DNA of 64,000 nt from Alphaproteobacteria bacterium. GTDB taxonomy: Bacteria > Pseudomonadota > Alphaproteobacteria > UBA7985. Numbering within the stretch: position 1 is the stretch's first letter; the number at the start of each line of letters is the position of its first letter. The notes under the pieces were generated by a model. That model had not been told where the DNA came from. It saw nothing but the letters and a program-made list of their open reading frames with translations, and did not search any database. The stretch covers positions 181,806 to 245,805 of the forward strand of contig CBDDHH010000003.1 of NCBI GenBank assembly GCA_965228345.1. Direction: 5' to 3'. A program made the position numbers and the translations under genes. This document shows positions 8,735 to 32,103 of the stretch, one piece after another.

Positions 8735-10019
8735 GCCTGGGCTCGACATTCAGACGGCTCGGGTTTTTTTGCCTTTGCTGGAGCCTGCTCGCTACAAGGC
8801 CGCTTACGGCGGGCGCGGGTCGGGTAAGTCGCATTTCTTTGGCGAATTGGCGGTTGAAGAGGCCTTGCGGTTTCCTGGCGAGTGCGGTGAGGGCTTGGCC
8901 TTGGTCTGTGTTCGGGAGGTGCAAAAGAGCCTCAAGGATTCAGCCAAGCGGTTGATTGAGGGGAAGATCCGCGCCTTTGGGCTCGGTGAGCCGCAGGGGT
9001 TTAGGGTTTGGAACGACCGCATCGAGTTGCCCAAGGGTGGGCAGATCATCTTTCAAGGGATGCAGGATCACACGGCGGAGTCCGTCAAGTCGCTTGAGGG
9101 GTTTCATCGGGCCTGGGTTGAGGAAGCGCAGACGCTTTCGGTGACTTCGCTGGAGTTGTTGCGGCCGACCATTCGTGCGCCTGGCTCGGAGTTGTGGTTT
9201 AGCTGGAACCCGAGGCGCAAGGCTGACCCCGTGGACGCCATGCTGCGCGGGGAGACTTTGCCGACCGGCGCGGTGGTGGTGCGGGCCAATTGGGACGACA
9301 ACCCTTGGTTCCCCGATACGCTCGACCAGGAGCGCCAAGATTGCTTGCGCGATGCGCCTGAGATGTATGAGCATATCTGGGAAGGGGGTTATGCGACCGT
9401 GCGCTCGGGGGCTTACTATCAGCGTGATGTGGTCAAGGCGCGGCAGGATGGGCGCCTTGGGGTGGTGACGCTGGATCCTTTGCTGCCGATTTATGCCTTT
9501 TGGGACATCGGCGTGTCCGACGCGACCGCCATCGTGGTGGCGCAGTTTGTGGGCTCGGCGCTCAAGGTGCTGGACTATTATGAGGCCACTGGCCAGCCGC
9601 TTTCGGCGCATCTGAATTGGTTGCGGCAAGCGGGCTATGGGGCGGCCAAGTGTTACTTGCCCCACGACGCTGATCAGCGCGACAAGGTGACGGCCATTCG
9701 GTTTGAGGACCATGTGCGCGCGGCGGGCTTTGCGGTGCAGACCGTGGCCAATCAGGGCAAGGGCGCGGCTTTGAAGCGGGTTGAGACCGCGCGGCGGCTG
9801 TGGCCGTCGATTTGGATCGATGAAGGCAAGGCGGGCGGGCTGATCGACGCCTTGGCCTGGTACCATGAGCGCTGGGACGACAATCGCAACATTGGCCTGG
9901 GGCCGAACCACGATTGGGCCAGCCATGGGGCCGATGCCTTTGGCCTCATGTGCGTGGCGCACGAACCGCCCAAGAGTGGGCGCAGGATTAAGCAAAGGGA
10001 GGTGCCTGTAATCGTATGA
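8703..10019 (+). CDS. Terminase large subunit (PBSX family)
   Basis: Walker A motif YGGRGSGKSHFF about 40 aa from the N-terminus; 438 aa; ATGA overlap with the portal gene. The start codon is uncertain (TTG 8703 or a nearby TTG). Confidence 0.85.
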   Translation: MHGPLLTPASEPGLDIQTARVFLPLLEPARYKAAYGGRGSGKSHFFGELAVEEALRFPGECGEGLALVCVREVQKSLKDSAKRLIEGKIRAFGLGEPQGFRVWNDRIELPKGGQIIFQGMQDHTAESVKSLEGFHRAWVEEAQTLSVTSLELLRPTIRAPGSELWFSWNPRRKADPVDAMLRGETLPTGAVVVRANWDDNPWFPDTLDQERQDCLRDAPEMYEHIWEGGYATVRSGAYYQRDVVKARQDGRLGVVTLDPLLPIYAFWDIGVSDATAIVVAQFVGSALKVLDYYEATGQPLSAHLNWLRQAGYGAAKCYLPHDADQRDKVTAIRFEDHVRAAGFAVQTVANQGKGAALKRVETARRLWPSIWIDEGKAGGLIDALAWYHERWDDNRNIGLGPNHDWASHGADAFGLMCVAHEPPKSGRRIKQREVPVIV

Positions 10020-12517
10020 GTGACATCGACCTAAGCGACGACGTGCAGCTTGCCAGCCATGTGGCGCAGTTGATTGACGGGTGTGAGAAGCATGCCGACG
10101 ATCAGGAGAAGTCGCGCCAGCCGGCGCTGGAGTACTATGACGGTATCATGACCGATACGCCCTTTGAGGCGGGGCGGACGGGGGTTGTGTCGCACGATTT
10201 GCGCGCGGCCATTAAGAAGATCATGCCGACGATCATGCGCACCTTGCTGTCGGGCGATAAGATCGTGGAGTTTGAGCCGGCGGGGCCTGGGCCTGACAAG
10301 GAACTACAAGCCCAGCAAGCGACCGACTATATGAACCATGTGGTTGTGCCCGAAGCGGGCGTTGAGGGGGCGCTTTATGACGCCATTTTTGACGCGCTGG
10401 TCGTCAAGACGGGCATTTTGAAGTGGCGGGCTTACAATCGGCGCGAAGCGACGGTCCAGCAGTACACGAGCCAGAGCGACGCGCAGTTGCTGGGGCTGGG
10501 GGGTGAGGACGGCGTTGAGATTGCCGACCTCGTGAGCGAGCCCGAGACCGACGCCGTGGCCCTGGCCGAGAATCCTGCGGCCATGCGCCATAGTTTCACT
10601 TTGCGGCGGGTGGTCGATCAGGTGGACGTGCGCCTTGAGGCCCTCCCGCGCGGGTCGTTCCTGATCCATCCCACCGCCGATAGCATCGAGGAGAGCCCGA
10701 TTGTTGGGGAGCGGCAGGTTGTCACGCGCTCCGAGTTGGTCAGCCGTGGCTACGACCGCGATTTGGTGGCGAGTTTGGCGGCCTATGCGGGCCGTGACCA
10801 TGAAGAGAGCGACAACCTGGCGCGCAAGGGTGAGGACTGGTCCGACGAGCGGATGCAGACGGCGGCGGCCATGGAAGAGGTCTTGCTCCACGAGGTCTAT
10901 GTGCGGCTTGACTTGGACGGCGACGGCATAGCGGAGTTGCACAAGGTGTGCCTGGCCGAAGGGTCGAGCGAAGAAGGCGCGGGACCTGTGGTGCTGGACC
11001 GCGAGCCTGTTGCTGAGGCGCCCTATGCCAAGGTGATCGCTGAACGCGAGGCGCATCAGTTTGAAGGGCGCTCGCTGGCCGAGGACGTGGTGCCGATTCA
11101 GAAGATCAAGACGGGGTTGGTGCGGCAAACGCTGGATAATTTGGTTTGGGCCAACAATCCGACGCCCGTGGTCGATGGCGGGGCTTTGACGACGCAGGGC
11201 ATTGAGGCCATGCAGAACCCGTCGTTTGGCAAGATCGTTGAGGCCGAGGCGGGGCGGGCCAAGGATGCGGTGCAGTTTTTGACCGTGCCCTTTGTCGGTG
11301 AGAAGTCCTTTGGCATGTTGCAGTACCTGGACGAAGAATTGCGCGAACGCACGGGCGTCACCGACCAGTCGGGCGGGCTGGATCCCGAAGCGTTTCAGAA
11401 CATGACCGCGACCTCGGTGCAGTTGATGGCCGAGAGCGGCATTGCCCAGGCGGAGATGATCGTGCGCTCGCTGAGCCGTGGGATTCGCAAGGCTTTCAAG
11501 GGCTTATTGCGGCTGGTTATTGCGCATTCTGACCGTGAGCGGGCGGTTCGGCTGCGCGGCGAGTGGATCGACTACGACCCCAGGCACTGGGATGTCGATA
11601 TGGACTGTGTGGTCAATGTCGGACTTGGCGCAGGATCGAAGGAGCGGGATCTGGCGGTTTTGCAAATGGTCCATGGGTTGCAGGAGAAGCTGCTGGCGGC
11701 TTTCGGACCTGACAACCCCTATGTGAAGCCCGAGCAGGTCTTTAACGTTTTGGACAAGATCACGGAGACGGCGGGCTTTCCCGATGTGAAGCCCTACTTC
11801 ACGCGGCCTGACCCGCAGGAAGTGCAGGCGCGGCTCCAGGCCGAAGCGCAGAAGCCGAGCGAGCATGATGAGAAGGTGCAGCTTGAGCAGATGAAGGCCC
11901 AAGCCAAGGCGCAGGCGGACATGGCTAAGGCCGAGATTGAGGCGCGGTTCAAGCGCATGGAGATGGACCATCAGATTCAGCTGGAGCGGATCAAGGCCGA
12001 ACAGCAGGCTGCCGCCGCTGCGGCCAAAGAAGAAGCGCAGGCGCGGTGGAACAGCAAAGAGCAGGAATTTAAGGCGCAGCTGGACGCCGCGACTGCTGAA
12101 CGCGACCTGGCCTTGAAACGCGAACAGATGGCGGCCGATACGGCCCTAAGGCGCGAGCAGATCGCCGCCGACGAGCGGCAGAACGCGCTCAACCAATCGG
12201 TGAAGATGCGGATCGAAGCGGCCAAGCTACCGCCCGAGATGCAAGGCGGGCTTGGGGGCTTTGCCGATCAGTTGGATGCCAGCGTGAACGCTCGGCCGAT
12301 TTTGAGCGATATAGCGGCGATTAAGGACAGTTTAGCGGCGATCACGGAGGCCTTGACCAGGGCCGAGACCGAAAAGGCCGCGCCGAGGCAGATCCTGCGC
12401 GACGAAGCGGGTCAGATCATCGGGGCGCAAGTGGTGATGCCCGATGGGACGACCATCGTCAAAGAATTGCAGCGCGATGAACACGGCAACGCCGTTGGGT
12501 CGCGGGTTCTCCACTAG
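10016..12517 (+). CDS. Portal protein (P22 gp1-like) with a long C-terminal coiled-coil extension
   Basis: 833 aa, directly after terL. The N-terminal region (ALEYYDG...GRTGVVSHDLRAAIKKIMPTIMRTLL) is portal-like. The last ~230 aa are A/E/K/Q-rich heptad-like sequence. Confidence 0.75.
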   Translation: MSDIDLSDDVQLASHVAQLIDGCEKHADDQEKSRQPALEYYDGIMTDTPFEAGRTGVVSHDLRAAIKKIMPTIMRTLLSGDKIVEFEPAGPGPDKELQAQQATDYMNHVVVPEAGVEGALYDAIFDALVVKTGILKWRAYNRREATVQQYTSQSDAQLLGLGGEDGVEIADLVSEPETDAVALAENPAAMRHSFTLRRVVDQVDVRLEALPRGSFLIHPTADSIEESPIVGERQVVTRSELVSRGYDRDLVASLAAYAGRDHEESDNLARKGEDWSDERMQTAAAMEEVLLHEVYVRLDLDGDGIAELHKVCLAEGSSEEGAGPVVLDREPVAEAPYAKVIAEREAHQFEGRSLAEDVVPIQKIKTGLVRQTLDNLVWANNPTPVVDGGALTTQGIEAMQNPSFGKIVEAEAGRAKDAVQFLTVPFVGEKSFGMLQYLDEELRERTGVTDQSGGLDPEAFQNMTATSVQLMAESGIAQAEMIVRSLSRGIRKAFKGLLRLVIAHSDRERAVRLRGEWIDYDPRHWDVDMDCVVNVGLGAGSKERDLAVLQMVHGLQEKLLAAFGPDNPYVKPEQVFNVLDKITETAGFPDVKPYFTRPDPQEVQARLQAEAQKPSEHDEKVQLEQMKAQAKAQADMAKAEIEARFKRMEMDHQIQLERIKAEQQAAAAAAKEEAQARWNSKEQEFKAQLDAATAERDLALKREQMAADTALRREQIAADERQNALNQSVKMRIEAAKLPPEMQGGLGGFADQLDASVNARPILSDIAAIKDSLAAITEALTRAETEKAAPRQILRDEAGQIIGAQVVMPDGTTIVKELQRDEHGNAVGSRVLH

Positions 12518-12542
12518 GGGCTGAACGAGGGCAGGCAGAGCC

Positions 12543-12824
12543 ATGGCAACAAAGAACACGGTCGCGCCTGCGGTCAAGACGGGCGACATCATCCAATACA
12601 ACGGCGACAATGTCACGAACATCACCGAGGACAACAGCCTTGTTTATCCGATTTATTTTTCTGTGAGTGCCGGGCCTGCCCCGACGCCAACCGAGGAAGA
12701 GCCCGAGGTGGCAGAGCCTGGCGATGAGGACTCAGACCTGCCCGCCTATCTGCAAGCGACCCTAGAGATCACGGAAACCGCCGAGATCACTGAAATCACC
12801 GAAGTCGAAGAAATCCAAGTTTAG
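12543..12824 (+). CDS. Hypothetical acidic phage protein with EIT(E) micro-repeats
   Basis: 93-aa ORF, co-oriented with its neighbours. C-terminus ATLEITETAEITEITEVEEIQV. Confidence 0.4.
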   Translation: MATKNTVAPAVKTGDIIQYNGDNVTNITEDNSLVYPIYFSVSAGPAPTPTEEEPEVAEPGDEDSDLPAYLQATLEITETAEITEITEVEEIQV

Positions 12825-12839
12825 AAAAGAGGAGAAGTC

Positions 12840-13817
12840 ATGGCCTTTACATCGCGCAAGACGCAAATCGAAGAAGCAATCATTCAGGTCAACGCGCAAA
12901 TGACCGCGATCACGGGCGCGACAAGCGGGCCGCTATCGAGCGACCAAGCCGCCGCCTACGAGCGCCTCAGGGTGACGCATAGCCACTATATCGACCTTCA
13001 CGTCACCGAGGAAGAAAAAGAGGCCGCTGCCGCCGCACAAGCCGCCTATGATGCCATCGATTCAACTGCGGTCTGGACTAAGACTTATGGCGCGGTCGTG
13101 GGTGTCTTTTCAGCCTATCACGGCTATTCAGGTACGGGCGCAACGTCGCAAGTTGGCACCAACCAAAGCGAACAGGCCAGCCACCGCTTTCTAACCATGG
13201 CGGCTTGTGGTGAGGCGTGGGCCGATGAGGATTTATCGTCCAAGCTCAACTTCCAATACACGCAAATGGAAACCAATTGGTTCACGGTGGATCGGCCCTT
13301 CTGGTATTTGGGCGAAGGCTACAACGAGGACGACCAAAGCAGCAGCACCTACACCTATCCGCGCCGCCCGCACTCGTTCGTGCCGCTACGCAATTCGACC
13401 GATGCCGATATTGTGCTAAACGTGGTTTATGAGGCCAGCAGCTATTCCAGCAATTATTCGAATATGGGGTTCAATACGTGGACGCCCGACCTTACGAACA
13501 CCGAATTAGCGACCCATAGCGGCGATGTGGCGGTGACGTTTCAGAACGTCTTTCAATACTCCAGCAACACAGCCCGTCGCGCCTCAAATCAGAATATCAC
13601 CATCCCTGCGGGCAAGTCGATCATCCTGCATTACTGGTCATCTGGCAAGTATCATGCGGATGTGACCAATCACTACACCATGAACTACGTCCACGGGCTC
13701 GACATATCGGCGATTGAGACCATCGATGGGCTTGAGTGCGACAAGCAGATCATGACCAACTTCGGCAAGAATTACAAAAAGGTGGGCAGTTTGTTCCTGC
13801 CCGAGCCTACTGAATAA
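12840..13817 (+). CDS. Hypothetical protein; helical N-terminus and a Ser/Tyr/Asn/Thr-rich C-terminal domain
   Basis: 325-aa ORF with GAGGAG 6 nt upstream of the ATG. Its composition clearly differs from the neighbouring phage ORFs. Confidence 0.5.
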   Translation: MAFTSRKTQIEEAIIQVNAQMTAITGATSGPLSSDQAAAYERLRVTHSHYIDLHVTEEEKEAAAAAQAAYDAIDSTAVWTKTYGAVVGVFSAYHGYSGTGATSQVGTNQSEQASHRFLTMAACGEAWADEDLSSKLNFQYTQMETNWFTVDRPFWYLGEGYNEDDQSSSTYTYPRRPHSFVPLRNSTDADIVLNVVYEASSYSSNYSNMGFNTWTPDLTNTELATHSGDVAVTFQNVFQYSSNTARRASNQNITIPAGKSIILHYWSSGKYHADVTNHYTMNYVHGLDISAIETIDGLECDKQIMTNFGKNYKKVGSLFLPEPTE

Positions 13818-13828
13818 GGAGCCTCCCC

Positions 13829-14083
13829 ATGAGTGACAAAAAAGCAACAGTGCCGACGCGGTGGATTGAGTTTGACGCGCAAGGCAACCAGGCGGGCGTC
13901 GGGATTGATCGCGTTCCTGGGACTTATGAGGCCCCTGCGGGCTATGACCCTGCTGCGGACTTTGCGCGGCTGGTTGACGGCAAGGTGGTCCTGGAGCCGA
14001 ATTGGACGGCGGAGCAGTACGAGGCGCACGAAGAAACCAAGCGCCTAGAGCGGATTGCCAAAGCGGCCAAAGAGGCCGCCTAA
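13829..14083 (+). CDS. Hypothetical phage protein
   Basis: 84-aa ORF with GGAG upstream, in the co-oriented block. Confidence 0.4.
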   Translation: MSDKKATVPTRWIEFDAQGNQAGVGIDRVPGTYEAPAGYDPAADFARLVDGKVVLEPNWTAEQYEAHEETKRLERIAKAAKEAA

Positions 14084-14091
14084 GCTAGGCC

Positions 14092-14631
14092 ATGGCGACT
14101 TATGACGTCACCCTGACGCTGGACAAGTCCGAGATCGGCAAGACGGTCACGGCCCAGCTCTTGCTTGCCGACGCTGACGAAGCGGCGATTGAGGTGACGG
14201 GCTTCACGGCTATGTCGGCGGCGGGGCGCTATGGGGCCAACCTGCCCAGCGACCTAGCGGCGGGCGAGTACCAGATACTTTACTACGCCGACGACGTGTT
14301 CAGGGTTGATGACACCTTGACCTGGGACGGGTCTGCTATCGTTGAAGGCGGCGGCGAGCCCGTCACTCTGGCCGATGCGTCGGTCGATGCGATTGTCGAG
14401 GCCGTTGAGCGCGATGAAGGGCTTGTGAAGGGGTTGGATGCCAAGGTTGAGGCCTTGCCCGACGCTGACGCCACCGCTGAGGCTGTTTGGACCAAAGAGA
14501 CGCGCACCGTTACGGGCACCCAAGACGACGCGGCTTTGCCCGCCAATGTCAAGTATATCAATGACATAGGCGTCGGTGGGTCGGGCGTTGAGGGCGATAC
14601 TTGGGGGCCGGCGCCTAGCGAAAGCGCTTAA
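14092..14631 (+). CDS. Hypothetical phage structural protein
   Basis: 179-aa ORF, tightly packed. No family recognised. Confidence 0.45.
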   Translation: MATYDVTLTLDKSEIGKTVTAQLLLADADEAAIEVTGFTAMSAAGRYGANLPSDLAAGEYQILYYADDVFRVDDTLTWDGSAIVEGGGEPVTLADASVDAIVEAVERDEGLVKGLDAKVEALPDADATAEAVWTKETRTVTGTQDDAALPANVKYINDIGVGGSGVEGDTWGPAPSESA

Positions 14632-14634
14632 GCC

Positions 14635-15141
14635 GTGACGGCGGTTGTTGACGCCTTCGGCGGGGCCTTTGGCGCGGCTTTTGGGCCTGCCTTTGGCTGG
14701 TCGATCGACGAGCCCGAGACCGCCACCAAGCCGACCCATAGCGGGCGCGTTTGGGTTGGTGGGCAGTGGGAGGACGAGGACGATGACCCGCTGGCCACCA
14801 TCGAGGATGCGCTCGACTATCTGAACCGCAAGCCCAAGCTGACCAAGGCGGCGCGGGCCAAGATCAAGGCCAAGATCGAAGCGGCGCGCAAGGTGGCGGA
14901 GAAAGCCGCCGCCGAACAAGCGGCCCAGCAAGCGCGCATGACGGCGCAGGCGGCCCGTGAGAGTGCCGCAAGCGCCTTGCTGCGGGATCTGCCGCCTTTG
15001 CCCGATTTGGACGCGCAGCGGGTGAGTTTGGTGCGCTTGCGGGCTTGGTTTGTCGAGTTACGGGCGCGGATCAGCGCTTTTGAAGATCACAAGCGCGCCG
15101 AGGACGAGGCTGCCATATTTTTGCTGCTGATGGATGACTAG
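14635..15141 (+). CDS. Hypothetical phage protein
   Basis: 168-aa ORF with a GTG start, 3 nt after the preceding stop. Confidence 0.4.
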   Translation: MTAVVDAFGGAFGAAFGPAFGWSIDEPETATKPTHSGRVWVGGQWEDEDDDPLATIEDALDYLNRKPKLTKAARAKIKAKIEAARKVAEKAAAEQAAQQARMTAQAARESAASALLRDLPPLPDLDAQRVSLVRLRAWFVELRARISAFEDHKRAEDEAAIFLLLMDD

Positions 15142-15370
15142 ACTTAGCCAAGGGGAGGCGCTGGCCCTCCTGCACAATACCACGCTCATGGCGCTCCTGG
15201 ACCAGATGGAGGCCGATGCGCTGAACCTGGCCGTGAACGCCAGTGCCGATGAAGATTCCCGCCGTTTGGTCGCCTGCACGCGCGCCAAGGCGTTTCGAGA
15301 TTTGAGACGGAAGTTGACGACCCTTTCCGAGGGCAAGACCAATCCCGCCTCAGATACGCGCGACGGATAG
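15134..15370 (+). CDS. Hypothetical phage protein
   Basis: 78-aa ORF overlapping the previous ORF by 8 nt. Confidence 0.4.
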   Translation: MTRLSQGEALALLHNTTLMALLDQMEADALNLAVNASADEDSRRLVACTRAKAFRDLRRKLTTLSEGKTNPASDTRDG

Positions 15371-15408
15371 CCGTCCCGCGTTACCAACCTTTCACAAAGG
15401 ATTGAGAC

Positions 15409-16335
15409 ATGACCCTAGACCCTGAAACGGGCGAGGCTATGGACGATCAAGACTTAGGTCTTGAGGACTTTGCAGACTTGCCCGACGAAGCGGACACGCC
15501 CGACGAAGAGCAACCCGAAGAGGACGAAGGCGCCGATTTGGCGGCGGATCAAGACGATCAGCCAGAGGCCGATGAAGACGACCCCGACGCGGACTTGAGC
15601 GAAGGCGACAAGGTGCTGGTCACTTTGAGCGACGGCGATCAAGTCAAGCTGGAAGAACTGAAGGCAGGCTATTTCCGTCAAAAGGACTATACGCACAAAA
15701 CTGAGGAACTGGCGCGCGAGCGCGAGCAGATCGGTGAGATCCGCAAGGCTTACGACCAGCAGACTCAAGCCCTCCAAGCCGCGCAAAATGGACTTGCGCA
15801 CTATATGCAGGGGCTTGTTCCTCCCGAACCCGATCTATCCCTGGCCCAGACCAACCCTGGGCAGTACCAATACCAGCAAGCCATGCGTCAACAGGCCATG
15901 GTCGAGTTGCAACGGGTACTCCAAGCCAGTCAACAGACGCAGGCGCAAGCCACGCAGGCCGACGCGGCCGAGCTGGCCCGCTACAAGTCCGACGAGGAAG
16001 CACGGCTGATCCAAGCCATGCCAAGCCTCAAGGACCCTGGGCGGCGCAGCAAATTCCACGCGGATGTGCGGCAAGCGGCCTTGGACTTTGGCTTTAGCGA
16101 GGCAGAGATCGACACGACCCTTGACCACCGCATCCTGCGGCTGGTGCATTTTGCCCGCCACGGCAAGCAAGCCTTGGACAACCGATCCAGGGCCGCGCGT
16201 CGTGCTGGCGAGAAGCCAAGCAAGGGCAAGCGGGCACCCGGGACGGCAGCAGCCCCCCAGGCGCGCAGCAAGGCCATGGAGCGCCTCACTAAATCTGGCG
16301 ACATTGAGGACGCGGTTGCCGCGATGCTCAACTAG
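15409..16335 (+). CDS. Putative scaffolding protein
   Basis: 308 aa, immediately upstream of the capsid gene. Extremely acidic N-terminus (D/E/P-rich), Q/A-rich helical middle, basic C-terminus. Confidence 0.5.
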   Translation: MTLDPETGEAMDDQDLGLEDFADLPDEADTPDEEQPEEDEGADLAADQDDQPEADEDDPDADLSEGDKVLVTLSDGDQVKLEELKAGYFRQKDYTHKTEELAREREQIGEIRKAYDQQTQALQAAQNGLAHYMQGLVPPEPDLSLAQTNPGQYQYQQAMRQQAMVELQRVLQASQQTQAQATQADAAELARYKSDEEARLIQAMPSLKDPGRRSKFHADVRQAALDFGFSEAEIDTTLDHRILRLVHFARHGKQALDNRSRAARRAGEKPSKGKRAPGTAAAPQARSKAMERLTKSGDIEDAVAAMLN

Positions 16336-16364
16336 CCACTCTCTAACCTCGAAAGGGTAAAACT

Positions 16365-17354
16365 ATGGCTGTTTCAACAGGAGCCTTTAAGACCGGTTCA
16401 GCGAAAGTGAACCGCGAAGAACTCGCCAACGTCGTCGATGCCGTCCAACGGTCGGACACGCCGATCTATTCCATGATCGCCAATTCCACGGCCAAGTCGG
16501 TCTTTCCTGAATGGCCTGTGCGGGACTTCGATGCCCCCGCGCAGAACATCCAGTCAGAAGGGCGCGACTATGCCTTTGAGTCGGACAATCCGTCAAAGCG
16601 CATGGGCAACCATACGCAGATCTTCGCCAAGAACGGCAAGTTCACCAACACCCAAGAAACGGTCGATAATGCCGCCAAGTCCGAACAGATGGCGCGCGAC
16701 AAGATCGAAAAGGGTTTGGCCTTGCGCACCGATGTGGAATTTTCCATCGTCACGAACAACGCCTCCCTCGGCGGCGATGATCGTGTGTCGGGGTCTCTAT
16801 CGACCTGGGCCGAGACCAACGTCTCACGCGGGGCAGGCGGGGCCAATGGTGGCTACAGCGAGACCACCAAGGTCACGACCGCGCCGACCGACGGAACGCA
16901 GCGGGCCTTGAGCAAGGACCTGATCGACGATCTGCTGCAAGCGGGCTATTCGTCGGGCGCCAAGCTGACGCATATGTTCTTTAGCCCCTACGGCAAGCGG
17001 GTCTTTGCCAGCCTGATGGAAGACCCTGGCGTTGCGCAGTTCCGCTACGCGGCCAAGGGCGGCAAGAATACCATCGTTGCCACGGCAGAGATTTACCTCG
17101 GCCCCCTCGGGCAAGTCACGGTGCATCCCAACCACGTCATGGGCGCCAGCGCCACGCAAGCGCGCAACGCCTTTGTGCTGGATACCAAGCGGGTCAAGTG
17201 GAAGTGGCTGCGCGCCATCTACGAGGACAAGGACCTGGCCAAGACGGGGGACTATCGGCAGTTCGTCCTGCAAGGCGAAGGCTGCCTGTGCGTTGAGAAC
17301 GAAAAGGCGGTCGGGGTGATCGCGGATATCTATGGGCTGACGGCGACGACCTAA
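16365..17354 (+). CDS. Major capsid protein (HK97-fold, SU10/DUF5309-like by recollection)
   Basis: 329 aa, follows the scaffold gene, and is followed by a strong terminator. The family call rests on recalled sequence character only. Confidence 0.65.
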   Translation: MAVSTGAFKTGSAKVNREELANVVDAVQRSDTPIYSMIANSTAKSVFPEWPVRDFDAPAQNIQSEGRDYAFESDNPSKRMGNHTQIFAKNGKFTNTQETVDNAAKSEQMARDKIEKGLALRTDVEFSIVTNNASLGGDDRVSGSLSTWAETNVSRGAGGANGGYSETTKVTTAPTDGTQRALSKDLIDDLLQAGYSSGAKLTHMFFSPYGKRVFASLMEDPGVAQFRYAAKGGKNTIVATAEIYLGPLGQVTVHPNHVMGASATQARNAFVLDTKRVKWKWLRAIYEDKDLAKTGDYRQFVLQGEGCLCVENEKAVGVIADIYGLTATT

Positions 17355-17373
17355 GAGGCTGACCAACTGGGAA

Positions 17374-17397
17374 GGGGGCTTAGCGGCCCCCTTTTTT
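17374..17397 (+). terminator. Rho-independent terminator after the capsid gene
   Basis: GGGGGC-ttagcg-GCCCCC followed by TTTTTT. Confidence 0.8.
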
Positions 17398-17495
17398 GTA
17401 ACATTTGCACTTGGGGCTTGAAATATGAGGGTCGTATCCTTAGTGAAAGAGGTCCGTGAGGGGTTTGGACTTTCTTTGAGTTGAGGTGATGACGG

Positions 17496-18050
17496 GTGTT
17501 TGACTTAGCCAAGGCTGCCCACATGGTCGCGTTTTTTGCGCTCAAAGCGGGTCGAAATATCAACCTTATGAAGGTCGTCAAACTGGTTTACCTTGCAGAT
17601 CGGGAAAGCGTGAAGCGGATTGGTGCGCCCCTCTTACACGACGCGCGAGTCTCCATGCCGCACGGACCTGTTAACAGTGGCGTTTTGGACGCCGTGAATG
17701 GCGCCTATGACGATCCAAGATGGCGATCAGTGCTAAGGGATCGAGCCCATCATTACATTGGTGTTCAGCCAGGCATCCGCGAAGATGATCTTGATGAGCT
17801 GTCCGACTACGATGTTGAGGTCATGGAGGCGGTTTGGCAAGAGTTTGGCGCTATGGATCAGTGGGAGCTTAGCGATTGGACCCATAACAGCAACAACGTT
17901 CCTGAATGGACGAGCCCAGGTGGGGGCGCGCAACCCATCCCAATGCAGAAATTTTTTGAAGGCGTTGGCTGTGAGGACCCAGAAGGAGCGTCCGCGACTT
18001 ATCTTGCTTCCGAGGCTTATCTTAAGTTTATTCACCCGACCCACGTGTGA
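17496..18050 (+). CDS. Panacea-domain (DUF4065, SocA/GepA-like) antitoxin PanA
   Basis: The N-terminus VFDLAKAAHMVAFFALKAGRNINLMKVVKLVYLADRES...MPHGPV matches the DUF4065 pattern (x-hKLqKLlYhad...., GPV). GTG start with GAGGTG upstream. 4-nt GTGA overlap with the next ORF. Confidence 0.75.
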   Translation: MFDLAKAAHMVAFFALKAGRNINLMKVVKLVYLADRESVKRIGAPLLHDARVSMPHGPVNSGVLDAVNGAYDDPRWRSVLRDRAHHYIGVQPGIREDDLDELSDYDVEVMEAVWQEFGAMDQWELSDWTHNSNNVPEWTSPGGGAQPIPMQKFFEGVGCEDPEGASATYLASEAYLKFIHPTHV

Positions 18051-18436
18051 TCCAACCCAAACAGGTTTACTACCTGGAGACGCTGCTTTCAGGTCGCCCA
18101 GGTCATACGCGCTCGCACTATACCGTGGTTGTTTTTGTTGAGGATGATCGCGCGCTTCTTGTTCCCATATGTAGCAAGCGGCCTCATGCCTACGACCCCA
18201 CGGTGGAGCTAGGCCCAAACGAATACCCACGGCTCCGCCATGCGTCGTTTGTCGAGTATAGCAAGGCCGACTTTATAAGCTTAGGGCATTTGTCGGAACA
18301 AATTGCAGCAGGCCTCGCGCGGCCTTGCGAAACCTTAAATGCGCAAGTGTTCTTGCGGATCAAGAACGGGCTTCTAAACTCGACCTACACGAAGAGAAAA
18401 ATCAAAAATTGGGTCAAGGGTCGCGCGGCCGAATAG
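18047..18436 (+). CDS. Candidate toxin partner of PanA (unknown family; weak MazF/PemK-like N-terminal pattern)
   Basis: 129-aa ORF translationally coupled to PanA (GTGA). QVYYLE...GHTRSHYTVVVFVEDDRALLVPICSK resembles the beta-barrel core and the vPxTS motif of PemK-like toxins, but the match is not secure. Followed by a terminator. Confidence 0.5.
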   Translation: MIQPKQVYYLETLLSGRPGHTRSHYTVVVFVEDDRALLVPICSKRPHAYDPTVELGPNEYPRLRHASFVEYSKADFISLGHLSEQIAAGLARPCETLNAQVFLRIKNGLLNSTYTKRKIKNWVKGRAAE

Positions 18437-18500
18437 GGCCAGGCTTGGCCGTCGCGCGAACTTTCGAATTCTATCCGCTGACAAGCTAGACCGAAACTTG

Positions 18501-18522
18501 AGGGGCCAATGGCCCCTTTTTT
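18501..18522 (+). terminator. Rho-independent terminator after the PanA/partner pair
   Basis: AGGGGCC-aat-GGCCCCT followed by TTTTT. Confidence 0.75.
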
Positions 18523-18546
18523 ATTGCTGAGTCTTGGGGGGGTGGG

Positions 18547-19647
18547 ATGTTGAAAATTGACTCGCCCATGCTGGCGAATCCCCATACGCCGCTTGACGTG
18601 GTTGATTTCGTTGAGCCGAAGCACTCAAAGGCCCGTGTTCGCCTTGCTGGCGACGTTCTCAAGCAAGCTCATGACCAAGTCAGCGACGAGTTGACCGACG
18701 CTTTCTCTGTCGCCTATGCCTGGCGTGACGCTCATGCCCTGCCTATGTCCGCCATGTTGAGCGAGTTGCGGGGCCTTGTTCGTCGTGGCGGTGGCGTAGG
18801 CTATTGCGCGGCACGACTTAAGCGCATGGCGTCGATACGGCCCAAGCTGGCGCGGTTCAAATTGCGGCTGGCAGACATGCAAGACTTGGCAGGCGCGCGG
18901 GCAATCTTGCCCTCGATCAGCGATGTCGAGCGCGTTTCTGCGCTGCTGGAAAGTGCGCGGTTTGGTCCGTCAAAGCCCGCAGTTGACTATATGGCGGCCC
19001 CAAAAGCGGACGGCTATAGGAGCGTCCACCGCGTCTTGAAGATGGAGGGCCACGGAGAGCGAGCGCCTTGGGGCGGCATGAAGGTGGAGGTGCAGGTAAG
19101 GACGCGGCTGCAACACGCATGGGCGACGGCGGTTGAAGCGCACGACATGATGAGCGGCGAGACCAGCCTGAAGGGCGGCCAAGGCGACGATAGTTGGCGG
19201 CGGTTTTTTGCACTTATGTCGGGCGAGATTGCCGAAGTTGAAAGCGCACCGCTTCCCGCCAGTGTGCCGGAAAACAGATCGGAGCGCCGAGAGGAATTGG
19301 CGCACCTGAACCGCGAGATTGACGCCCTTAGGGTGCTAGAAAGTTACCGCCTAGCGGCGGATGCGGCGGACGCGCGCCCTGATGCTCGCTATTTCTTGCT
19401 GATGCTGGACACGCGCCGAAAGACTGTCAAAATAAGATCCTTCTACGGCATCCTGGACGGCGGCGACGCATACAACCAAAGAGAGGCGAGCGCGACTAGC
19501 ACGGTATTGGTTGAATCGGGCGACGCGAAGAACCTAGCGGCGGCCTATCCAAACTACTTTTTAGACATTCGTGCTTTTGTTGGTCAGGTTCGCGTCTCGC
19601 TGGGCGGCCATGACTTGTCCTGGCTTAGTGAATACGGGCGCTGTTAG
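18547..19647 (+). CDS. RelA/SpoT-domain nucleotide pyrophosphokinase (small alarmone synthetase / toxSAS-like) with a ~160-aa C-terminal extension
   Basis: All synthetase motifs are present: RLKRMASIRPK (RxKxxxSxxxK), DLAGARAI (DxxGxR), DGYRSVH, and VEVQVRTRLQHAWATAVEAHD (ExQxRTxxQHxWA). These span aa 90-200, which is nt 18814-19146. Confidence 0.8.
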   Translation: MLKIDSPMLANPHTPLDVVDFVEPKHSKARVRLAGDVLKQAHDQVSDELTDAFSVAYAWRDAHALPMSAMLSELRGLVRRGGGVGYCAARLKRMASIRPKLARFKLRLADMQDLAGARAILPSISDVERVSALLESARFGPSKPAVDYMAAPKADGYRSVHRVLKMEGHGERAPWGGMKVEVQVRTRLQHAWATAVEAHDMMSGETSLKGGQGDDSWRRFFALMSGEIAEVESAPLPASVPENRSERREELAHLNREIDALRVLESYRLAADAADARPDARYFLLMLDTRRKTVKIRSFYGILDGGDAYNQREASATSTVLVESGDAKNLAAAYPNYFLDIRAFVGQVRVSLGGHDLSWLSEYGRC

Positions 19648-19664
19648 GCATCGCCGTGTTTTTT

Positions 19665-19700
19665 GGCCCGTAACTTTTCGGAAACAGGCCCGTAACTTTT
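19665..19700 (+). promoter_or_regulatory. Two direct copies of GGCCCGTAACTTTT with a 22-bp period, upstream of the resumed phage genes
   Basis: Copies at 19665-19678 and 19687-19700, about 35 nt upstream of ATG 19734 (RBS GAAAGGAA). Confidence 0.3.
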
Positions 19701-19733
19701 TTGATTTCCCCAAAAAAAACGAAAGGAATCCCC

Positions 19734-20024
19734 ATGACAAAGGATGAACTAGAAGCTCTGGGCCGTGAGCATGGCTTGGAATTGGACAAGCGCAAGTCGG
19801 TTGCCAAGTTGCGCGAGGAGTTGGCTGCGGCGGGCGTTGAGGTGCCTGCGGAGGCGGCTGAGGCCGCTGAGCCTGGTGCGGCTGAACCTGGCGTTGATGT
19901 TGAGATTTTGCGCGACGTTTGGGACGCAGGCGGGGTTCGGCAGCGGCGGGGGTCGGTGGTGGCGGTTTCTACCGATACGGCCCTTGAGTGGCTCGAAAAG
20001 GGCCTGGCTAAGCGCGCCGCATGA
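19734..20024 (+). CDS. Hypothetical phage protein (helix-extended-helix, Rho-N/SAP-like N-terminus)
   Basis: MTKDELEALGREHGLELDKRKSVAKLREELAAAG. The start is taken at the internal ATG with an RBS; the ORF is open from 19701. Confidence 0.5.
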   Translation: MTKDELEALGREHGLELDKRKSVAKLREELAAAGVEVPAEAAEAAEPGAAEPGVDVEILRDVWDAGGVRQRRGSVVAVSTDTALEWLEKGLAKRAA

Positions 20025-20362
20025 TTGGGCAACGCGACAGCGCGGGCTGGCAGTGTGTGGGCTTTAACCCGCAAAGCCAAGTGTCCACCTGGATCAAGCC
20101 CGATGGCGACGAGGATATGTTGATCGAAGAACGTCAAGAGATTGGCGCCATCCTCGATCACAACACCGCTGCCCGCAATGTGGCTGAGGCGGGCTGGAAA
20201 GGCGACGGGCTGCACCGCGTTGCCGCCATTCCCATGGCCATGGCCCATGAGCGGGATAGCTTTCTACACGGGGCCTTGCAGGCCCAGGACGCCAAGGCCC
20301 TTGCGGGCGTGTTGAACGATAGCGACTTTGCCAAGCTGCGCACCAAGGAAGGCGCCATCTAG
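20021..20362 (+). CDS. Hypothetical phage protein
   Basis: 113-aa ORF with a 4-nt overlap on the upstream ORF. Confidence 0.45.
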   Translation: MIGQRDSAGWQCVGFNPQSQVSTWIKPDGDEDMLIEERQEIGAILDHNTAARNVAEAGWKGDGLHRVAAIPMAMAHERDSFLHGALQAQDAKALAGVLNDSDFAKLRTKEGAI

Positions 20363-20934
20363 TGATCCAGGACTATGCGGCCCTAATCGCCGAGGTGACG
20401 CTTCGGTCGGGCGTTTCGGATGTTGCGACCCGCGCGGGCCTGTATGTTGGCATGGCCGAGAACGCCCTTTCTAAGCGGCTGCGCGTTGGCGACATGGAGA
20501 CCGAAGCGACCTTGACCACCGACGAGGACGGGCGCGCGGACTTGCCGGCGGACTTTTTAGAAGTGCGGTCGCTACGCACGGCGGACCAGGCTTTGCCGCA
20601 ACGGACCTTGCGAGCCGTTCAGGACGGGGCGGTCTGTGGCTATGCGCTGACGGGCAAGGCTTTGGTGACGAACGAGAAGGAAACGGACCTTGAATTGGTC
20701 TATTACGCCGCTTTGCCTGGCCTAGAAGCGCATGACACCAACTGGCTGCTGGAGCAGGATCCTGAGGTCTATTTGAGCGCGGTGCTGTTTCAGGTCTTTA
20801 TCGCCAATTCCAACCTTGAGGGCGCGCAGGCGGTGACGGGGCTGTTGACGGGGCAGATCGAGGCGCTGAACCGCGACGACTATCGCAAGCGCCATGCAGG
20901 GGCGCGGGTGAATGTGGCGGGGCTTACGCCATGA
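20362..20934 (+). CDS. Phage virion protein (head-tail adaptor or tail-tubular-like, unassigned)
   Basis: 190 aa, overlapping its neighbours. Shares the ..DLP.DF..... pattern with the next ORF, suggesting the two are paralogues. Confidence 0.45.
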   Translation: MIQDYAALIAEVTLRSGVSDVATRAGLYVGMAENALSKRLRVGDMETEATLTTDEDGRADLPADFLEVRSLRTADQALPQRTLRAVQDGAVCGYALTGKALVTNEKETDLELVYYAALPGLEAHDTNWLLEQDPEVYLSAVLFQVFIANSNLEGAQAVTGLLTGQIEALNRDDYRKRHAGARVNVAGLTP

Positions 20935-21533
20935 GTGCTGAGGATGTTTTGAGTCATGTCTTGCTGGCCGTTGGGCTGGATCGGCCTGGGGCGCAGTTGA
21001 CGGCGGGGGACTTTGAGATTGACCAGATCAAAGCCTTTATGAACGAAGCGGGAACGGACATCGCGCGGCGGGCGCAGTGGTCGGGCTTGTTTAAGACGCA
21101 CACCATCGAAGGCGAAGTGTCGGCGGTGGATTTGCCCGAGGATTTTTATCAGATGGCGCAGAATGGGGCGGTGCGGCTGAATAAGGAGGGGTTTTACCCT
21201 GTTTTGCCCGTGCTGGTACCTGAGCAGTGGGCTTTCTTGTCGGCGCGGCCTTCGGCGCAAGCGCACTATCACCTTTCGCAAGGGCAGCTGTTGTTTTCGC
21301 CTGCGCTCGATGAAGATGGGGCGGTCATGGTGTACCTGTCGAGCTGGTGGGTCGAGGGCAAGGGGGCGATTAGCCAGAATAGCGACGAGATCCTGATCCC
21401 CGAACGCCTGGTCGAAAAGGGCACGGTTTGGCGGTGGAAGCGGCAAAAGGGCATGACCTACGATGATTTGCTCGCCGAATTTGAAGCCGACCTTGAGGCC
21501 GAACTGAACGCGGATCGAGGCGCGAGTGCTTAG
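20931..21533 (+). CDS. Phage virion protein (possible paralogue of the preceding ORF)
   Basis: 200 aa with an ATGA overlap. VDLPEDFYQMAQNGAVRL compares with ADLPADFLEVRSLR in the previous ORF. Confidence 0.45.
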   Translation: MSAEDVLSHVLLAVGLDRPGAQLTAGDFEIDQIKAFMNEAGTDIARRAQWSGLFKTHTIEGEVSAVDLPEDFYQMAQNGAVRLNKEGFYPVLPVLVPEQWAFLSARPSAQAHYHLSQGQLLFSPALDEDGAVMVYLSSWWVEGKGAISQNSDEILIPERLVEKGTVWRWKRQKGMTYDDLLAEFEADLEAELNADRGASA

Positions 21534-25030: not shown

Positions 25031-25348
25031 CTCTTTTATTCGCTGGTATAAGGGCCGCGACTGCGGCCCCCGTAGCGGGCTCCAAGCCCGAAGGGCGCAG
25101 GGAACGCCCGCGCCAAAAACACTTGGGCTCCAAGCCCGAAGGGCGCAGGGAACGCCCGCGCCAAAAACAAGCGGCCCCGAGAATAGCTAAGAAAGCGCCT
25201 CGGAGTATAAGCGAAGGCCCCGTCGCGCGGTCGGGCTGAGCGAGCGGTGCAAGCGAGGTGAGACCGCATCAAACAGCCGAAACGCGAAGCGTTTCTGCCG
25301 TGAGACAAAACTCTGCTGAAAATGTCAATTCTTAGCGGAGTTGGTATA
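25007..25348 (-). repeat. Mosaic intergenic repeat, copy R2 (long form, reverse) with an internal 48-bp tandem duplication
   Basis: Its reverse complement aligns module by module with R1, R7 and R11. GGGCTCCAAGCCCGAAGGGCGCAGGGAACGCCCGCGCCAAAAACA occurs twice, at 25077 and 25125. Confidence 0.9.
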
Positions 25349-25650
25349 AGGCGTTGCGAGGACGGCGTTCCTACCTGGCTGAGCTTCCGCGGATAGTGTG
25401 ACCCTTTAATGAAGTCGATCGTGCGTCCACCCATGGCTCGACGAGTCAAGGTTTCGCCGCGTTGGTTTTATGGGTTGGAACGGTATTTGTTTGGTCGTGA
25501 TTGTCTTTGATGAGAGAACTCGTTATTACGAGCCTGATGAAATCGCCCTGCGGCGAACTTTTTATTTGCAGGGGCGTCATGACGTTGTAGGGGCAGAACG
25601 ACCGAGCTTTGTGGCTTTCTAATTCCCACTTGTACAGATTTCCCAGATTC

Positions 25651-27330
25651 ATGAAGAACATGCCTTTGTTCCCTCTTGCCCTTGCGGGCATTGCAGGGCT
25701 CATAGTAACGCTATGTGCGCTATTCCTCGTCCAAGTTGCAAGTCCTTGGCCCTATACCGACATGTGGGATGGAGGTCTCGGCTTCTTAATAAAGGTTACT
25801 GAAGACTTTACCTTTGGGGCCTTTTTCAAGCCTCACAACGAACATCGTATTGTCCTGGCACGTGTTCTGTTTTTCTTAGATGAAAGGTTATTTGGCGGCA
25901 CCAACACCTCGCTTTATGTTTGGCACTTCGCATTTGCTTGCGCCTTCTGCGTTCTTTTCGCAGCGGCGATTTGGCGCGAGATTTCAGGGTGGTCTCGGCT
26001 TATCTTGATGTCATTCACTATAAGTTTGGTTTTTTCTCTCTCTCAGTCCTATAACTTTGGACGGGCGTTTCAGAGCATGTTTTTTCTGGCCTACCTAGCG
26101 CCCTTTGCCACGTATGTGGCCTGGGCGCGTTTTCGCGTCACGACGCGCGCGGCTTGGGCGTTTGGGGCCTTGGCGCTGGGGATAATGAGTGCGCTGACCA
26201 TGGCCAACGGCGCGCTGGCGCTGCTCCCGCTCATTGTTTATGAGGGGCTTGCGCGCACCCGGCTAAGGTGGATCGGCATTCTCGTGGTGGTTCAGGCCCT
26301 GGTCTTGTTGCTCTATTTTTGGGATTACCATAGCCCTGGGCATCATCCGAGTTGGTCAAGCACCTTGTCCCAGCCTGTGGTTTTTCTTGAGTATATTCTG
26401 GTCTTCCTTGGGTCATGGGCTGGGGCCGAGGCGGCACCGATTGTTGGCGGAGTCATCGTTGGCGGCACAACTTTCTGGCTTTGGCGCCATATGCGTCGGC
26501 CAGAACCGGCGAAAATGAGCCAAGCCCTCTTGCTACTCCTTATGTTCGTGATCGTGACTGCCGCCGTCACAGCCCTGGGGCGGGCAGGTTTTGGTGTGGA
26601 GACAGCTCTAAAGAGCCGCTATACAACACCCTCGCTCTATGCCTTGTCAGCAGCTGTGGGCCTGGCTTATCTTCGCAGAACTTGGCGTCAGCGCTGGCTG
26701 CATATATTTATGGGCTTAGTTGGGGTTGCGGCCCTTGGCGAGCAGGCAACACGAGATTTTGTACCCCATCACAAAGAGTTCTTAAAACGCGCGGCGACCA
26801 TGTCAATTATTCAGGGAACGCCCGACGAGGAAGCCTTTTTGAAACATGCCTACCCTCATCACTTGCATGAGGCGCGAGTAGCCGATGCGTTACGACTCGG
26901 CATTGGCGTGTTTGGCACGCCGCCCTATAGTCAAATGCGTGATCTAGTGGGGAAGCAAATTCGCCCTTTAAGTGGCGAAAGACCTGACCAAGCTTGCGAA
27001 GGGGGTATTGCGGCAACTCTAGAGCTGAAGGACGGGGGGGTTCGGGTGACTGGTTGGATGAAAGATCCCGCTGTGCGCCATGGCTTTGCCACGCTAGTAG
27101 CAGGACAGGATGGGCGCATCTTGGGCTTTGGGCTCAGCAGTTCTTGGAAGTCTGCCCCTAGTGAACCGGCCTCACATCCCGAGCTAGAGAGATTTTGGGT
27201 CTATCTCAGTCCTTTGCGGCAAGCGGAACGCCCGATCACCTTGCAGTTTTGGGAGGAGGCGGCAAGTTGCGAGCTAACCTTATCAATCCCCGTTGAGATG
27301 AATTCCAAGCGGACTCATATCAGCGGTTAA
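25651..27330 (+). CDS. Polytopic inner-membrane protein, putative GT-C-type glycosyltransferase (candidate arabinofuranosyltransferase)
   Basis: About 560 aa with at least 10 hydrophobic segments and a ~170-aa soluble C-terminal domain. It sits at the head of the lipid-linked sugar donor cluster. The start is taken at ATG 25651 (MKNMPLFPLALAG...); the ORF is open from 25609. Confidence 0.5.
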   Translation: MKNMPLFPLALAGIAGLIVTLCALFLVQVASPWPYTDMWDGGLGFLIKVTEDFTFGAFFKPHNEHRIVLARVLFFLDERLFGGTNTSLYVWHFAFACAFCVLFAAAIWREISGWSRLILMSFTISLVFSLSQSYNFGRAFQSMFFLAYLAPFATYVAWARFRVTTRAAWAFGALALGIMSALTMANGALALLPLIVYEGLARTRLRWIGILVVVQALVLLLYFWDYHSPGHHPSWSSTLSQPVVFLEYILVFLGSWAGAEAAPIVGGVIVGGTTFWLWRHMRRPEPAKMSQALLLLLMFVIVTAAVTALGRAGFGVETALKSRYTTPSLYALSAAVGLAYLRRTWRQRWLHIFMGLVGVAALGEQATRDFVPHHKEFLKRAATMSIIQGTPDEEAFLKHAYPHHLHEARVADALRLGIGVFGTPPYSQMRDLVGKQIRPLSGERPDQACEGGIAATLELKDGGVRVTGWMKDPAVRHGFATLVAGQDGRILGFGLSSSWKSAPSEPASHPELERFWVYLSPLRQAERPITLQFWEEAASCELTLSIPVEMNSKRTHISG

Positions 27331-27336
27331 CACGAT

Positions 27337-31134: not shown

Positions 31135-31166
31135 CCCACAAGGCTGGAACCTAGGCAAAGCGTTCA

Positions 31167-32102: not shown

Positions 32103-32103
32103 A

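Follow-up and report, generated by a model that had tools for sequence, protein, structure and literature searches.

Two exchangeable toxin-type cassettes in a probable defence hotspot between the capsid and tail genes of an alphaproteobacterial SU10-type prophage

The segment described here, about 2.3 kb long, lies between the major capsid gene and the tail genes of a phage module within a stretch of 64,000 nucleotides (nt) from an alphaproteobacterial assembly (GCA_965228345.1, contig CBDDHH010000003.1, positions 181,806 to 245,805), which as a whole is called the window below. Three genes occupy it: a Panacea-domain antitoxin gene (PanA), the gene of its small putative toxin (PanT) and a RelA/SpoT gene, which proves to encode a fused CapRel-type toxin-antitoxin. 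An earlier note, made from the sequence alone, had listed the capsid gene, two terminators, PanA with a partner, the RelA/SpoT gene, a pair of 14-bp direct repeats and the resumed virion genes, all of which were found where it placed them; it had also proposed an accessory moron or defence islet between capsid and tail genes, and that proposal stands, with homology to two close relatives breaking off at the islet and different cargo lying there in each. The genes of the surrounding structural module are co-oriented around the islet over window positions 8303-21533 and beyond (Table 1). Further to the right of the virion genes lie ordinary bacterial genes with the same G+C content at third codon positions (GC3), and database records place the islet proteins on a 1.44-Mb contig; therefore, the element is an integrated prophage, namely a temperate podovirus of SU10 type residing in an alphaproteobacterial chromosome.

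Table 1. Features of the capsid-to-tail region and of the structural module around it (window coordinates; aa, amino acids; ORF, open reading frame).
Feature	Position	Strand	Evidence or remark
Small terminase	8303-8734		
Large terminase	8703-10019		
SU10-type portal	10016-12517		
Scaffold	15409-16335		
SU10-type major capsid protein	16365-17354	+	Pfam PF17236, 5.8e-64; phrog_1328 major head protein
Capsid-gene intrinsic terminator	17370-17397	+	12-bp G+C-rich hairpin and T6; -20.1 kcal/mol, z -2.7
Accessory cargo, two cassettes	17398-19720	+	about 2.3 kb between capsid-gene terminator and ORF 19734
Cassette A: leader, PanA, PanT	17398-18439	+	common to L005 at 88% DNA identity; absent from L004
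PanA, Panacea-domain antitoxin, 184 aa	17496-18050	+	PF13274, 3.2e-19; phrog_1281
PanT, putative toxin, 129 aa, predicted MazF/Kid fold, unnamed family	18047-18436	+	phrog_19071, 4e-10
Cassette B: T27 terminator, CapRel gene, 3' tail with 14-bp repeats	18440-19720	+	
Intrinsic terminator T27, 27 nt, AGGGGCCAATGGCCCCTTTTTTATTGC	18500-18527	+	terminator scan (18500-18522) and fold energy
Fused CapRel-type toxSAS, 366 aa	18547-19647	+	PF04607, 2.6e-17
Two exact 14-bp direct repeats, GGCCCGTAACTTTT	19665-19678, 19687-19700	+	starts 22 bp apart; within the 3' tail of cassette B
Small virion-module gene, 96 aa (ORF 19734), right anchor of the slot	19734-20024	+	C-terminus matches phrog_8441
113-aa ORF beyond the islet			phrog_3982
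SU10 adaptor	20362-20934		
Tail protein	20931-21533		
547-aa protein beyond the islet			phrog_5107

The borders of the segment come out sharply when the window is set beside two relatives. The first, L004 (OZ245893.1), is a prophage in an alphaproteobacterial metagenome-assembled genome whose capsid protein is 97% identical to that of the window; DNA homology to it covers window 14434-17395 and sets in afresh from 19721 onward, and the 1.27 kb in between is AT-rich, unrelated to the window, and holds the gene of a ClpP-like SDH-type serine protease (PF01972, 8.8e-22) together with its own terminator. The second, L005, is a metagenomic contig, in which positions 3-1487 match window 16962-18439 at 88% identity (blastn). 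This match takes in the capsid gene, its terminator, PanA and PanT, and stops 3 nt past the PanT stop codon, to be followed by a different terminator and by the gene of a 407-aa Fic protein that matches the PADLOC model of SoFic (1.9e-43). Homology is back at window 19711 in L005 and at 19721 in L004, that is, at the ribosome-binding site of ORF 19734, whose product shares 82% identity with its counterpart in L004 and 77% with that in L005. Three members of the close clade (the window, L004 and L005) carry three different cargo sets. Since one cassette border falls right after PanT in L005, we conclude that the islet consists of two separately exchangeable cassettes, and the description of a single three-gene unit had to be given up.

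The left border is the intrinsic terminator of the capsid gene. A simple terminator scan did not list it, and it is nevertheless kept in both L004 and L005 with changes in the loop, the L004 sequence diverging straight after the T-run. It is a conserved backbone element that bounds the slot from outside, not one of the islet's own terminators as had been supposed. Regarding the genes on either side, the capsid genes of the window (16365-17354) and of L004 (8001-8990) are 92.6% identical in DNA, and the 10 substitutions in the protein are scattered; the scaffold proteins of the two are only about 80% identical and the tail proteins about 70%, and the capsid protein is under strong purifying selection. 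In the family of ORF 19734, conservation is limited to the C-terminal 45 or so aa, and the N-terminal extension varies, so that the whole protein has 49 aa in EBPR podovirus 2 (L001 7042-7191), 96 in the window and 193 in L068.

In the wider phage group, the capsid gene is commonly followed directly by the homologue of ORF 19734, which is what the earlier note had suggested looking for. EBPR podovirus 2, the closest isolated phage (capsid 55% identical), has this homologue (gp21, 36% identical to the ORF 19734 product) 48 nt after its capsid gene. As a measure of slot size, the distance between the end of the capsid reading frame and the 113-aa gene was compared over 84 related IMG/VR and GenBank loci. 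In 47 of them it amounts to about 200-420 bp, the small gene being the sole occupant; roughly 30 have about 490-1000 bp, and the largest slots are those of L034 (1344 bp), L004 (1608 bp), the window (2667 bp) and L005 (2909 bp). The islet genes are absent in any form from 81 of the 84 relatives, and all isolated phages examined lack them. Instead, the slot of Sulfitobacter phage pCB2047-A holds an HNH endonuclease gene and that of Rhizobium phage RHph_Y25 the gene of a 145-aa protein without known function; more generally, the extra slot genes of distant relatives encode mostly unannotated small proteins rich in Ala, Thr and Gly, or HNH endonucleases. Cargo recognised as defence or toxin genes has so far turned up only in the clade to which the window belongs. 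The idea that the slot serves purely as a defence hotspot across the whole phage group was accordingly toned down, given that its distant occupants are mostly HNH endonucleases or small proteins without known function. A megablast search found no near relatives of the module among deposited phages.

Composition tells the same segment apart from its surroundings. The G+C content of the islet is 0.559, compared with 0.608 and 0.618 in its flanks, so that the islet had rightly been called AT-richer as far as cassette A and the spacers are concerned; the CapRel gene itself, at 0.596, is close to the backbone. Core virion genes have a GC3 of 0.739 +/- 0.045 and host genes one of 0.738 +/- 0.032, and against the core genes PanA (GC3 0.557, z -4.1) and PanT (0.600, z -3.1) stand well apart, CapRel much less so (0.670, z -1.5). 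Codon usage, scored as the likelihood of synonymous codons under core-gene usage, is atypical in all three, with z values of -4.2 for PanA, -3.5 for PanT and -5.5 for CapRel; among 2000 chunks of core genes, none scored as low as the islet genes. On the whole, the composition agrees with the earlier note in part only. All three islet genes are foreign in codon usage, CapRel mainly by codon choice.

Population data place the islet in the company of related phages with other cargo. The sequence is present in four runs (X1-X4) of one metagenome study. In run X1, the word depth of contigs that equal the window in sequence is about 35-44, even across the capsid gene, the islet and the tail genes, and contigs of about 93% identity reach a depth of about 125 over the capsid gene and do not cover the islet; this capsid variant, about three times as abundant as the window's own, is without the islet. 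Run X4 contains junctions of L004 type, in which the terminator is followed by CCTGATTTTAACCCTAA and then by ORF 19734. Given the variant contigs and these junctions, related phages with other cargo co-occur with that of the window. Within the window's own strain, the source metagenome runs gave no sign of a presence/absence polymorphism.

Cassette A begins with a short leader and PanA, which reaches 70.4 bits against a cut-off of 25.7 with PF13274 (SocA_Panacea/DUF4065). The gene starts with GTG behind a GAGG ribosome-binding site, and the protein carries, as read from its sequence, a GPV motif at G57-P58-V59, a motif that is important in Panacea antitoxins (PMC8832971). The PanT gene overlaps that of PanA by 4 nt (GTGA), an arrangement through which its translation is coupled to that of PanA. 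Directly upstream of a gene of the PanT family, PanA was found in eight of eight independent loci, with partner identity going down to about 25%, and these loci span several phyla, from Alphaproteobacteria to Acidobacteria. Their settings are phage structural and lysis modules as well as chromosomal toxin-antitoxin or restriction clusters, and in four of them (L006, L007, L015 and L017) the pair occurs without a third toxin. In L006 (1-2722), an unrelated marine phage contig, it lies directly upstream of the tape-measure gene, and in L007 (802-1723) beside holin genes; the cassette seems to favour insertion inside the late modules of phages.

PanT itself has no sequence match in Pfam, NCBIfam, PADLOC or the PDB. 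A word-indexed search gathered 3 proteins of its family and an exhaustive profile search 389 representatives, all of about 120-140 aa; neither PanT nor any of 51 members has a Pfam match at E <= 1, no member bears a Pfam domain or a name, and every database entry reads 'hypothetical protein'. Residues H24, D50, T52, S67, Y71, G108 and S112 are near-invariant in the family. The AlphaFold2 (AF2) model of PanT has a predicted local distance difference test score (pLDDT) of 95.4 and a predicted template-modelling score (pTM) of 0.87, and the top 50 Foldseek matches in the PDB are all MazF, Kid, PemK, MoxT or YdcE structures, with probability 1.00, TM scores of 0.53-0.70 and a best E of 2.9e-4. A MazF/Kid fold is thus confidently predicted for PanT. 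In the absence of any PemK/MazF match in Pfam or among PDB sequences, we file PanT under this fold and not as a member of the family.

A profile comparison was also made with hhalign, setting the PanT family against an E. coli MazF sequence. The match is weak (probability 48%, E 1.8e-4) but in register, and in this weak alignment H24 of PanT falls on H28 of MazF and S43 on T52. The catalytic Arg/Thr pair of E. coli MazF consists of R29 and T52. We propose that cassette A is a type II toxin-antitoxin pair. In the literature, PanA antitoxins have been validated against MazF/PemK-like PanT toxins, the likeness lying at the level of the fold (Kurata et al. 2022, PMC8832971).

In cassette B, the RelA/SpoT gene encodes a fused CapRel-type toxSAS toxin-antitoxin, and the analogy with CapRel drawn in the earlier note was an apt one. 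The protein scores 63.6 bits against a cut-off of 27 with PF04607 over residues 90-199 and matches PADLOC model PDC-S33 over its full length (2.9e-91); PDC-S33 is not mentioned in the literature searched, and it is through the matches in the PDB and in fold that we equate it with CapRel. Among solved structures, the window protein is closest to 7ZTB and 9ERV, both of them CapRelSJ46 (1e-22). The N-terminal part is a toxSYNTH domain, predicted to be a tRNA pyrophosphokinase, and the C-terminal part a pseudo-zinc-finger domain (pseudo-ZFD) with a YXXY motif, the putative sensor and antitoxin. Through a HMMER alignment to 7ZTB and the residue list of Zhang et al. (PMC9712102), the catalytic residues R79, R116 and the G-loop Y155 of CapRelSJ46 map to R90, R118 and Y157 of the window protein, the interface residues A77, V338, L339 and A351 to A88, V320, L321 and A333, and the tyrosines Y352 and Y355 of YXXY to Y334 and Y337 (AYPNYF); the interface residue A341 is replaced by E323. 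When 45 homologues are aligned, R90, R118, G156 and Y157 are invariant and V320, L321, A333, Y334 and Y337 conserved, and identity by part is 0.15 in the linker, 0.31 in the pseudo-ZFD and 0.47 in the catalytic core. A variable pseudo-ZFD has been reported for CapRel (PMC9712102).

The AF2 model of the protein (pLDDT 90) builds the pseudo-ZFD from strands 282-288, 293-299 and 318-323, with a helix, 302-313, between the last two (pLDDT about 90). With Foldseek the model matches 7ztb_B over 353 columns (E 9.6e-21), and the other matches, which include the small alarmone synthetases RelQ and RelP, span the synthetase domain alone (about 200 columns). The root-mean-square deviation of 9.7 Å between model and 7ztb_B would be expected if the model is closed and the crystal open. 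More than 1000 full-length CapRel homologues were found, the nearest 46% identical. Those of L010, L011 and L012 stand alone, with neither PanA nor another conserved neighbour. A cI-like repressor is one of the neighbours observed, and another setting is a defence island on a plasmid, shared with MmeI, ParDE and a UvrD-like helicase; the homologues examined elsewhere are not next to capsid genes.

The 27-nt terminator T27, which closes the PanA-PanT pair and stands first in cassette B, recurs, identical or with 1 mismatch, after the protease gene and the 88-aa gene of L004 and after the AAA_16 cargo of L005. It is specific to this lineage, and each of four different cargo modules has it at its 3' end; among 185,579 GTDB species genomes, the sole exact match is in the L004 genome, for which reason a genome-wide repeat was rejected as an explanation. 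T27 marks the 3' ends of cargo modules in this phage lineage, and it may, as a hypothesis, help the exchange of cassettes by recombination. The 14-bp repeats (GGCCCGTAACTTTT) that had been noticed in front of the virion genes are indeed present, two copies in all of the 64 kb, yet both belong to the CapRel cassette, within its right end, and are not flanking duplications. The motif is absent from all 99 loci fetched. As the right end has both copies and neither the left end nor any related locus has one, target-site duplications or att-like borders were rejected; likewise an RNA structure or a terminator, the region folding no better than shuffled sequence (z +0.75) and having no Rfam match.

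Taken together, we consider it likely that window 17398-19720 is accessory cargo, made up of two independently exchangeable cassettes in a prophage diversity hotspot and protecting against competing phages. The independence of the cassettes follows from the internal terminator, the L005 border after PanT and the homologues that stand alone. This reading draws on the observed gene content, the linkage of PanA with PanT, the swappable segment, the foreign codon usage and the terminators, and beside them on the folds of PanT and CapRel and the conserved catalytic and autoinhibitory residues, as modelled. In such a scenario, the capsid terminator would insulate the slot from late transcription, and both cassettes would be expressed from the prophage in the lysogen. 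PanA would bind and neutralise PanT; once PanA was lost or displaced, by infection or by loss of the prophage, PanT would halt growth, most likely as an endoribonuclease. In resting CapRel, the pseudo-ZFD would be folded back so that YXXY blocks the ATP site between R90 and R118. A protein of an invading phage might then bind the variable pseudo-ZFD, release the YXXY plug and open the enzyme, which would pyrophosphorylate the 3' ends of tRNA and thereby abort the infection. The lysogen, and so the prophage, would in this manner be protected against its competitors. For CapRelSJ46, the trigger is a major capsid protein (PMC9712102).

Several observations weigh against this account. At the position of MazF R29, PanT has no Arg (in a weak match, probability 48%), so that RNase activity is not assured; no PADLOC model matches PanA or PanT; and since the nearest relatives of CapRel are at most 46% identical, neither trigger nor substrate can be transferred with confidence. 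Furthermore, no sigma-70-like promoter was detected upstream of 17496 or 18547, in a scan that may not suit alphaproteobacterial promoters, no RNA runs holding the gene were found, so that we infer expression in the lysogen, and the close prophage clade was compared through three members only.

It could be thought that the cassettes are mainly addiction modules that hold the prophage in the chromosome through the death or arrest of cells that shed it, and not antiphage defence. PanA and PanT do have the classical two-gene layout of a toxin-antitoxin pair with translational coupling, and they also occur in chromosomal toxin-antitoxin clusters that are not obviously prophage. A fused CapRel without a separable unstable antitoxin fits such a role poorly, however (PMC9712102), and the alternative occupant of the CapRel sub-slot, SoFic, is a named defence system. 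As an account of both cassettes, addiction is therefore unlikely in our judgement; for PanA-PanT it is plausible, and compatible with defence.

A different thought is that the genes are late lytic functions, serving host shut-off or competition in co-infection and expressed by read-through from the capsid operon. The three genes run in the direction of the virion operon, the scan gave no promoter of their own, and PanA-PanT lies inside structural or lysis modules of other phages too. On the other hand, the islet has a strong terminator in front of it and a second one within, most relatives and all isolated phages examined do without the genes, and an autoinhibited sensor-toxin would be an odd tool for host take-over, all of which leaves this explanation quite improbable.

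The position directly behind the capsid gene is tempting, given that CapRelSJ46 is activated by a major capsid protein (PMC9712102). The phage's own capsid might regulate or trigger CapRel, or tight linkage might tie the sensor to a capsid allele by which it is not set off, sparing the resident and aborting sister phages with a slightly different capsid. If this were true, recombination would not part the sensor from its 'safe' capsid once it is placed behind the capsid gene. Near-identical capsid variants without the islet do co-occur and are more abundant, and a prophage must not trigger its own defence, as with HepS of Gifsy-1 (PMC13043305). Yet the cargo in the slot of relatives is unrelated (HNH endonucleases, a protease, SoFic, small proteins), CapRel homologues elsewhere lie away from capsid genes, and the 10 residues at which the capsid protein differs from that of L004 are spread out. 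The functional link to the capsid that the earlier note had hinted at is indicated by nothing in these data, and both forms of it, including the safe-allele version, have in our view a slim chance. Since related phages use one and the same slot for HNH endonucleases, a protease or small proteins, it resembles a site behind a terminator that tolerates insertions; the capsid adjacency is most probably a property of the slot.

It is also conceivable that the islet is one three-gene system, in which PanA controls CapRel (in L005, Fic) besides PanT. Indeed toxSAS, including unfused CapRel, and Fic/Doc are validated partners of Panacea (PMC8832971), and it is exactly toxSAS and Fic that hold the third position in the window and L005. 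Against this, a terminator lies between PanT and CapRel, L005 homology ends exactly after PanT with the third gene swapped alone, PanA-PanT occurs without a third toxin in the four loci named above, CapRel homologues occur without PanA, and CapRel brings a YXXY motif of its own for autoinhibition. In view of the cassette borders and of homologues that stand alone, we judge a role of PanA as antitoxin of CapRel unlikely, and the three-gene system as such highly improbable. Finally, that the three genes are core virion components and their composition a matter of chance, for which nothing more than co-orientation with the virion genes speaks, is refuted by their absence from 81 of 84 relatives, by a different occupant even at 97% capsid identity and by the codon usage, as atypical in 0 of 2000 core-gene chunks.

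Other parts of the prophage vary as well. Between the SU10 adaptor gene and the tail gene that comes after it there is a second cargo slot. The window has no cargo in it, its adaptor and tail genes overlapping by 4 nt (20931-20934), whereas L004 (11527-11890) has an 88-aa ORF there and L005 (4218-6354) an AAA_16 ATPase with two small ORFs. Each of these two cargoes closes with the 27-nt terminator, and the leader of about 30 nt that comes next is identical in both. The interval between portal and scaffold (window 12518-14434) has no DNA homology to L004 and contains a 325-aa ORF (12840-13817; GC 0.545, GC3 0.687) whose sole match is phrog_16274, and isolated relatives have just one ORF of about 75 aa there; this interval is probably another variable region. 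The portal has 833 aa, of which the SU10 portal model spans residues 12-631 only, leaving a C-terminal extension of about 200 aa beyond it; annotated portals of related phages have about 700 aa. Just upstream of the terminase genes, on the minus strand, a PP-loop ATPase family protein is encoded (6311-7465; PF01171; phrog_27769, 2.9e-97). Directly after the tail genes, a block of low G+C content (0.49-0.57; about 25200-35000) comprises a 573-aa ORF without family match (25609-27330), a HAD/UbiA-prenyltransferase fusion (27627-29081), a FAD_binding_4 protein (29078-30394) and an amine-oxidase-type flavoprotein (32086-33387); the block may represent an island for envelope-glycan modification or the end of the prophage.

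What the locus adds is a cleanly delimited defence hotspot in the little-studied SU10-type temperate podoviruses of Alphaproteobacteria. Its sharp and conserved borders, the capsid terminator on one side and the ribosome-binding site of the small virion gene on the other, could serve as anchors in a search of metagenomes for new cargo. It documents an unnamed toxin family of predicted MazF fold that is strictly paired with Panacea antitoxins, and it offers a natural test case for the way in which a CapRel that senses capsids escapes activation by that of the phage encoding it. Current concepts are unchanged by the finding; the segment is an ordinary and well-documented example of a prophage defence hotspot, with cargo of known kinds.

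Each part of the cargo can be set beside a known system. Like the PanA-PanT pairs of Pseudomonas moraviensis and Bifidobacterium ruminantium (PMC8832971), cassette A joins a GPV Panacea antitoxin to a small putative toxin that resembles MazF/PemK at fold level, in a bicistronic operon of a kind frequent in phages and prophages; unlike theirs, its toxin belongs to a family without a Pfam model, in which, by the weak alignment with MazF, the catalytic Arg is not conserved. Cassette B is comparable with CapRelSJ46 of the Salmonella prophage SJ46 (PDB 7ZTB, 9ERV; Zhang et al. 2022, PMC9712102), which has 373 aa where the window protein has 366. Both share the domain order of toxSYNTH, anchor helices, pseudo-ZFD and C-terminal helices, the G-loop Tyr, both adenine-coordinating Arg residues, YXXY and most interface residues; both are prophage-encoded single genes, and in both the pseudo-ZFD is the most variable part. 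The window CapRel, known here from sequence and model, differs in being about 26% identical, in its alphaproteobacterial host, in the Glu at the position of A341 and in its place behind a capsid gene. A further parallel is HepS of Gifsy-1 (Sargen et al. 2026, PMC13043305), a single-protein abortive-infection sensor of a virion structural protein that is encoded by a prophage and acts on tRNA; HepS is a HEPN nuclease that senses tail-tip proteins. The problem of self-targeting would be faced by both, and self-evasion, demonstrated for HepS, is hypothetical here. SoFic (PADLOC PDLC03963), which holds the exact CapRel sub-slot in L005, is also a single gene with an enzymatic domain of toxin type; its fold and chemistry are unrelated to those of CapRel, and it is absent from the window.

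As to the slot itself, hotspots have been defined as small loci of 1-5 kb between two conserved phage genes, with high turnover and antiphage cargo (PMC9122126), and the slot described here has 2.3 kb, three cargo sets, and PDC-S33/CapRel and SoFic among its occupants. Of the marks of a moron, it has its own terminators and a composition that differs from the backbone. With the hotspots of P2 and P4 (Rousset et al. 2022, PMC9122126) and with lambdoid morons it shares own terminators, foreign composition and a fast turnover of cargo. Unlike these, the hotspot of the window is found within the head-to-tail structural operon, away from cos, integrase and repressor, and it differs from them further in having two sub-slots and a lineage-specific 27-nt terminator that recurs at the 3' ends of its cargo.

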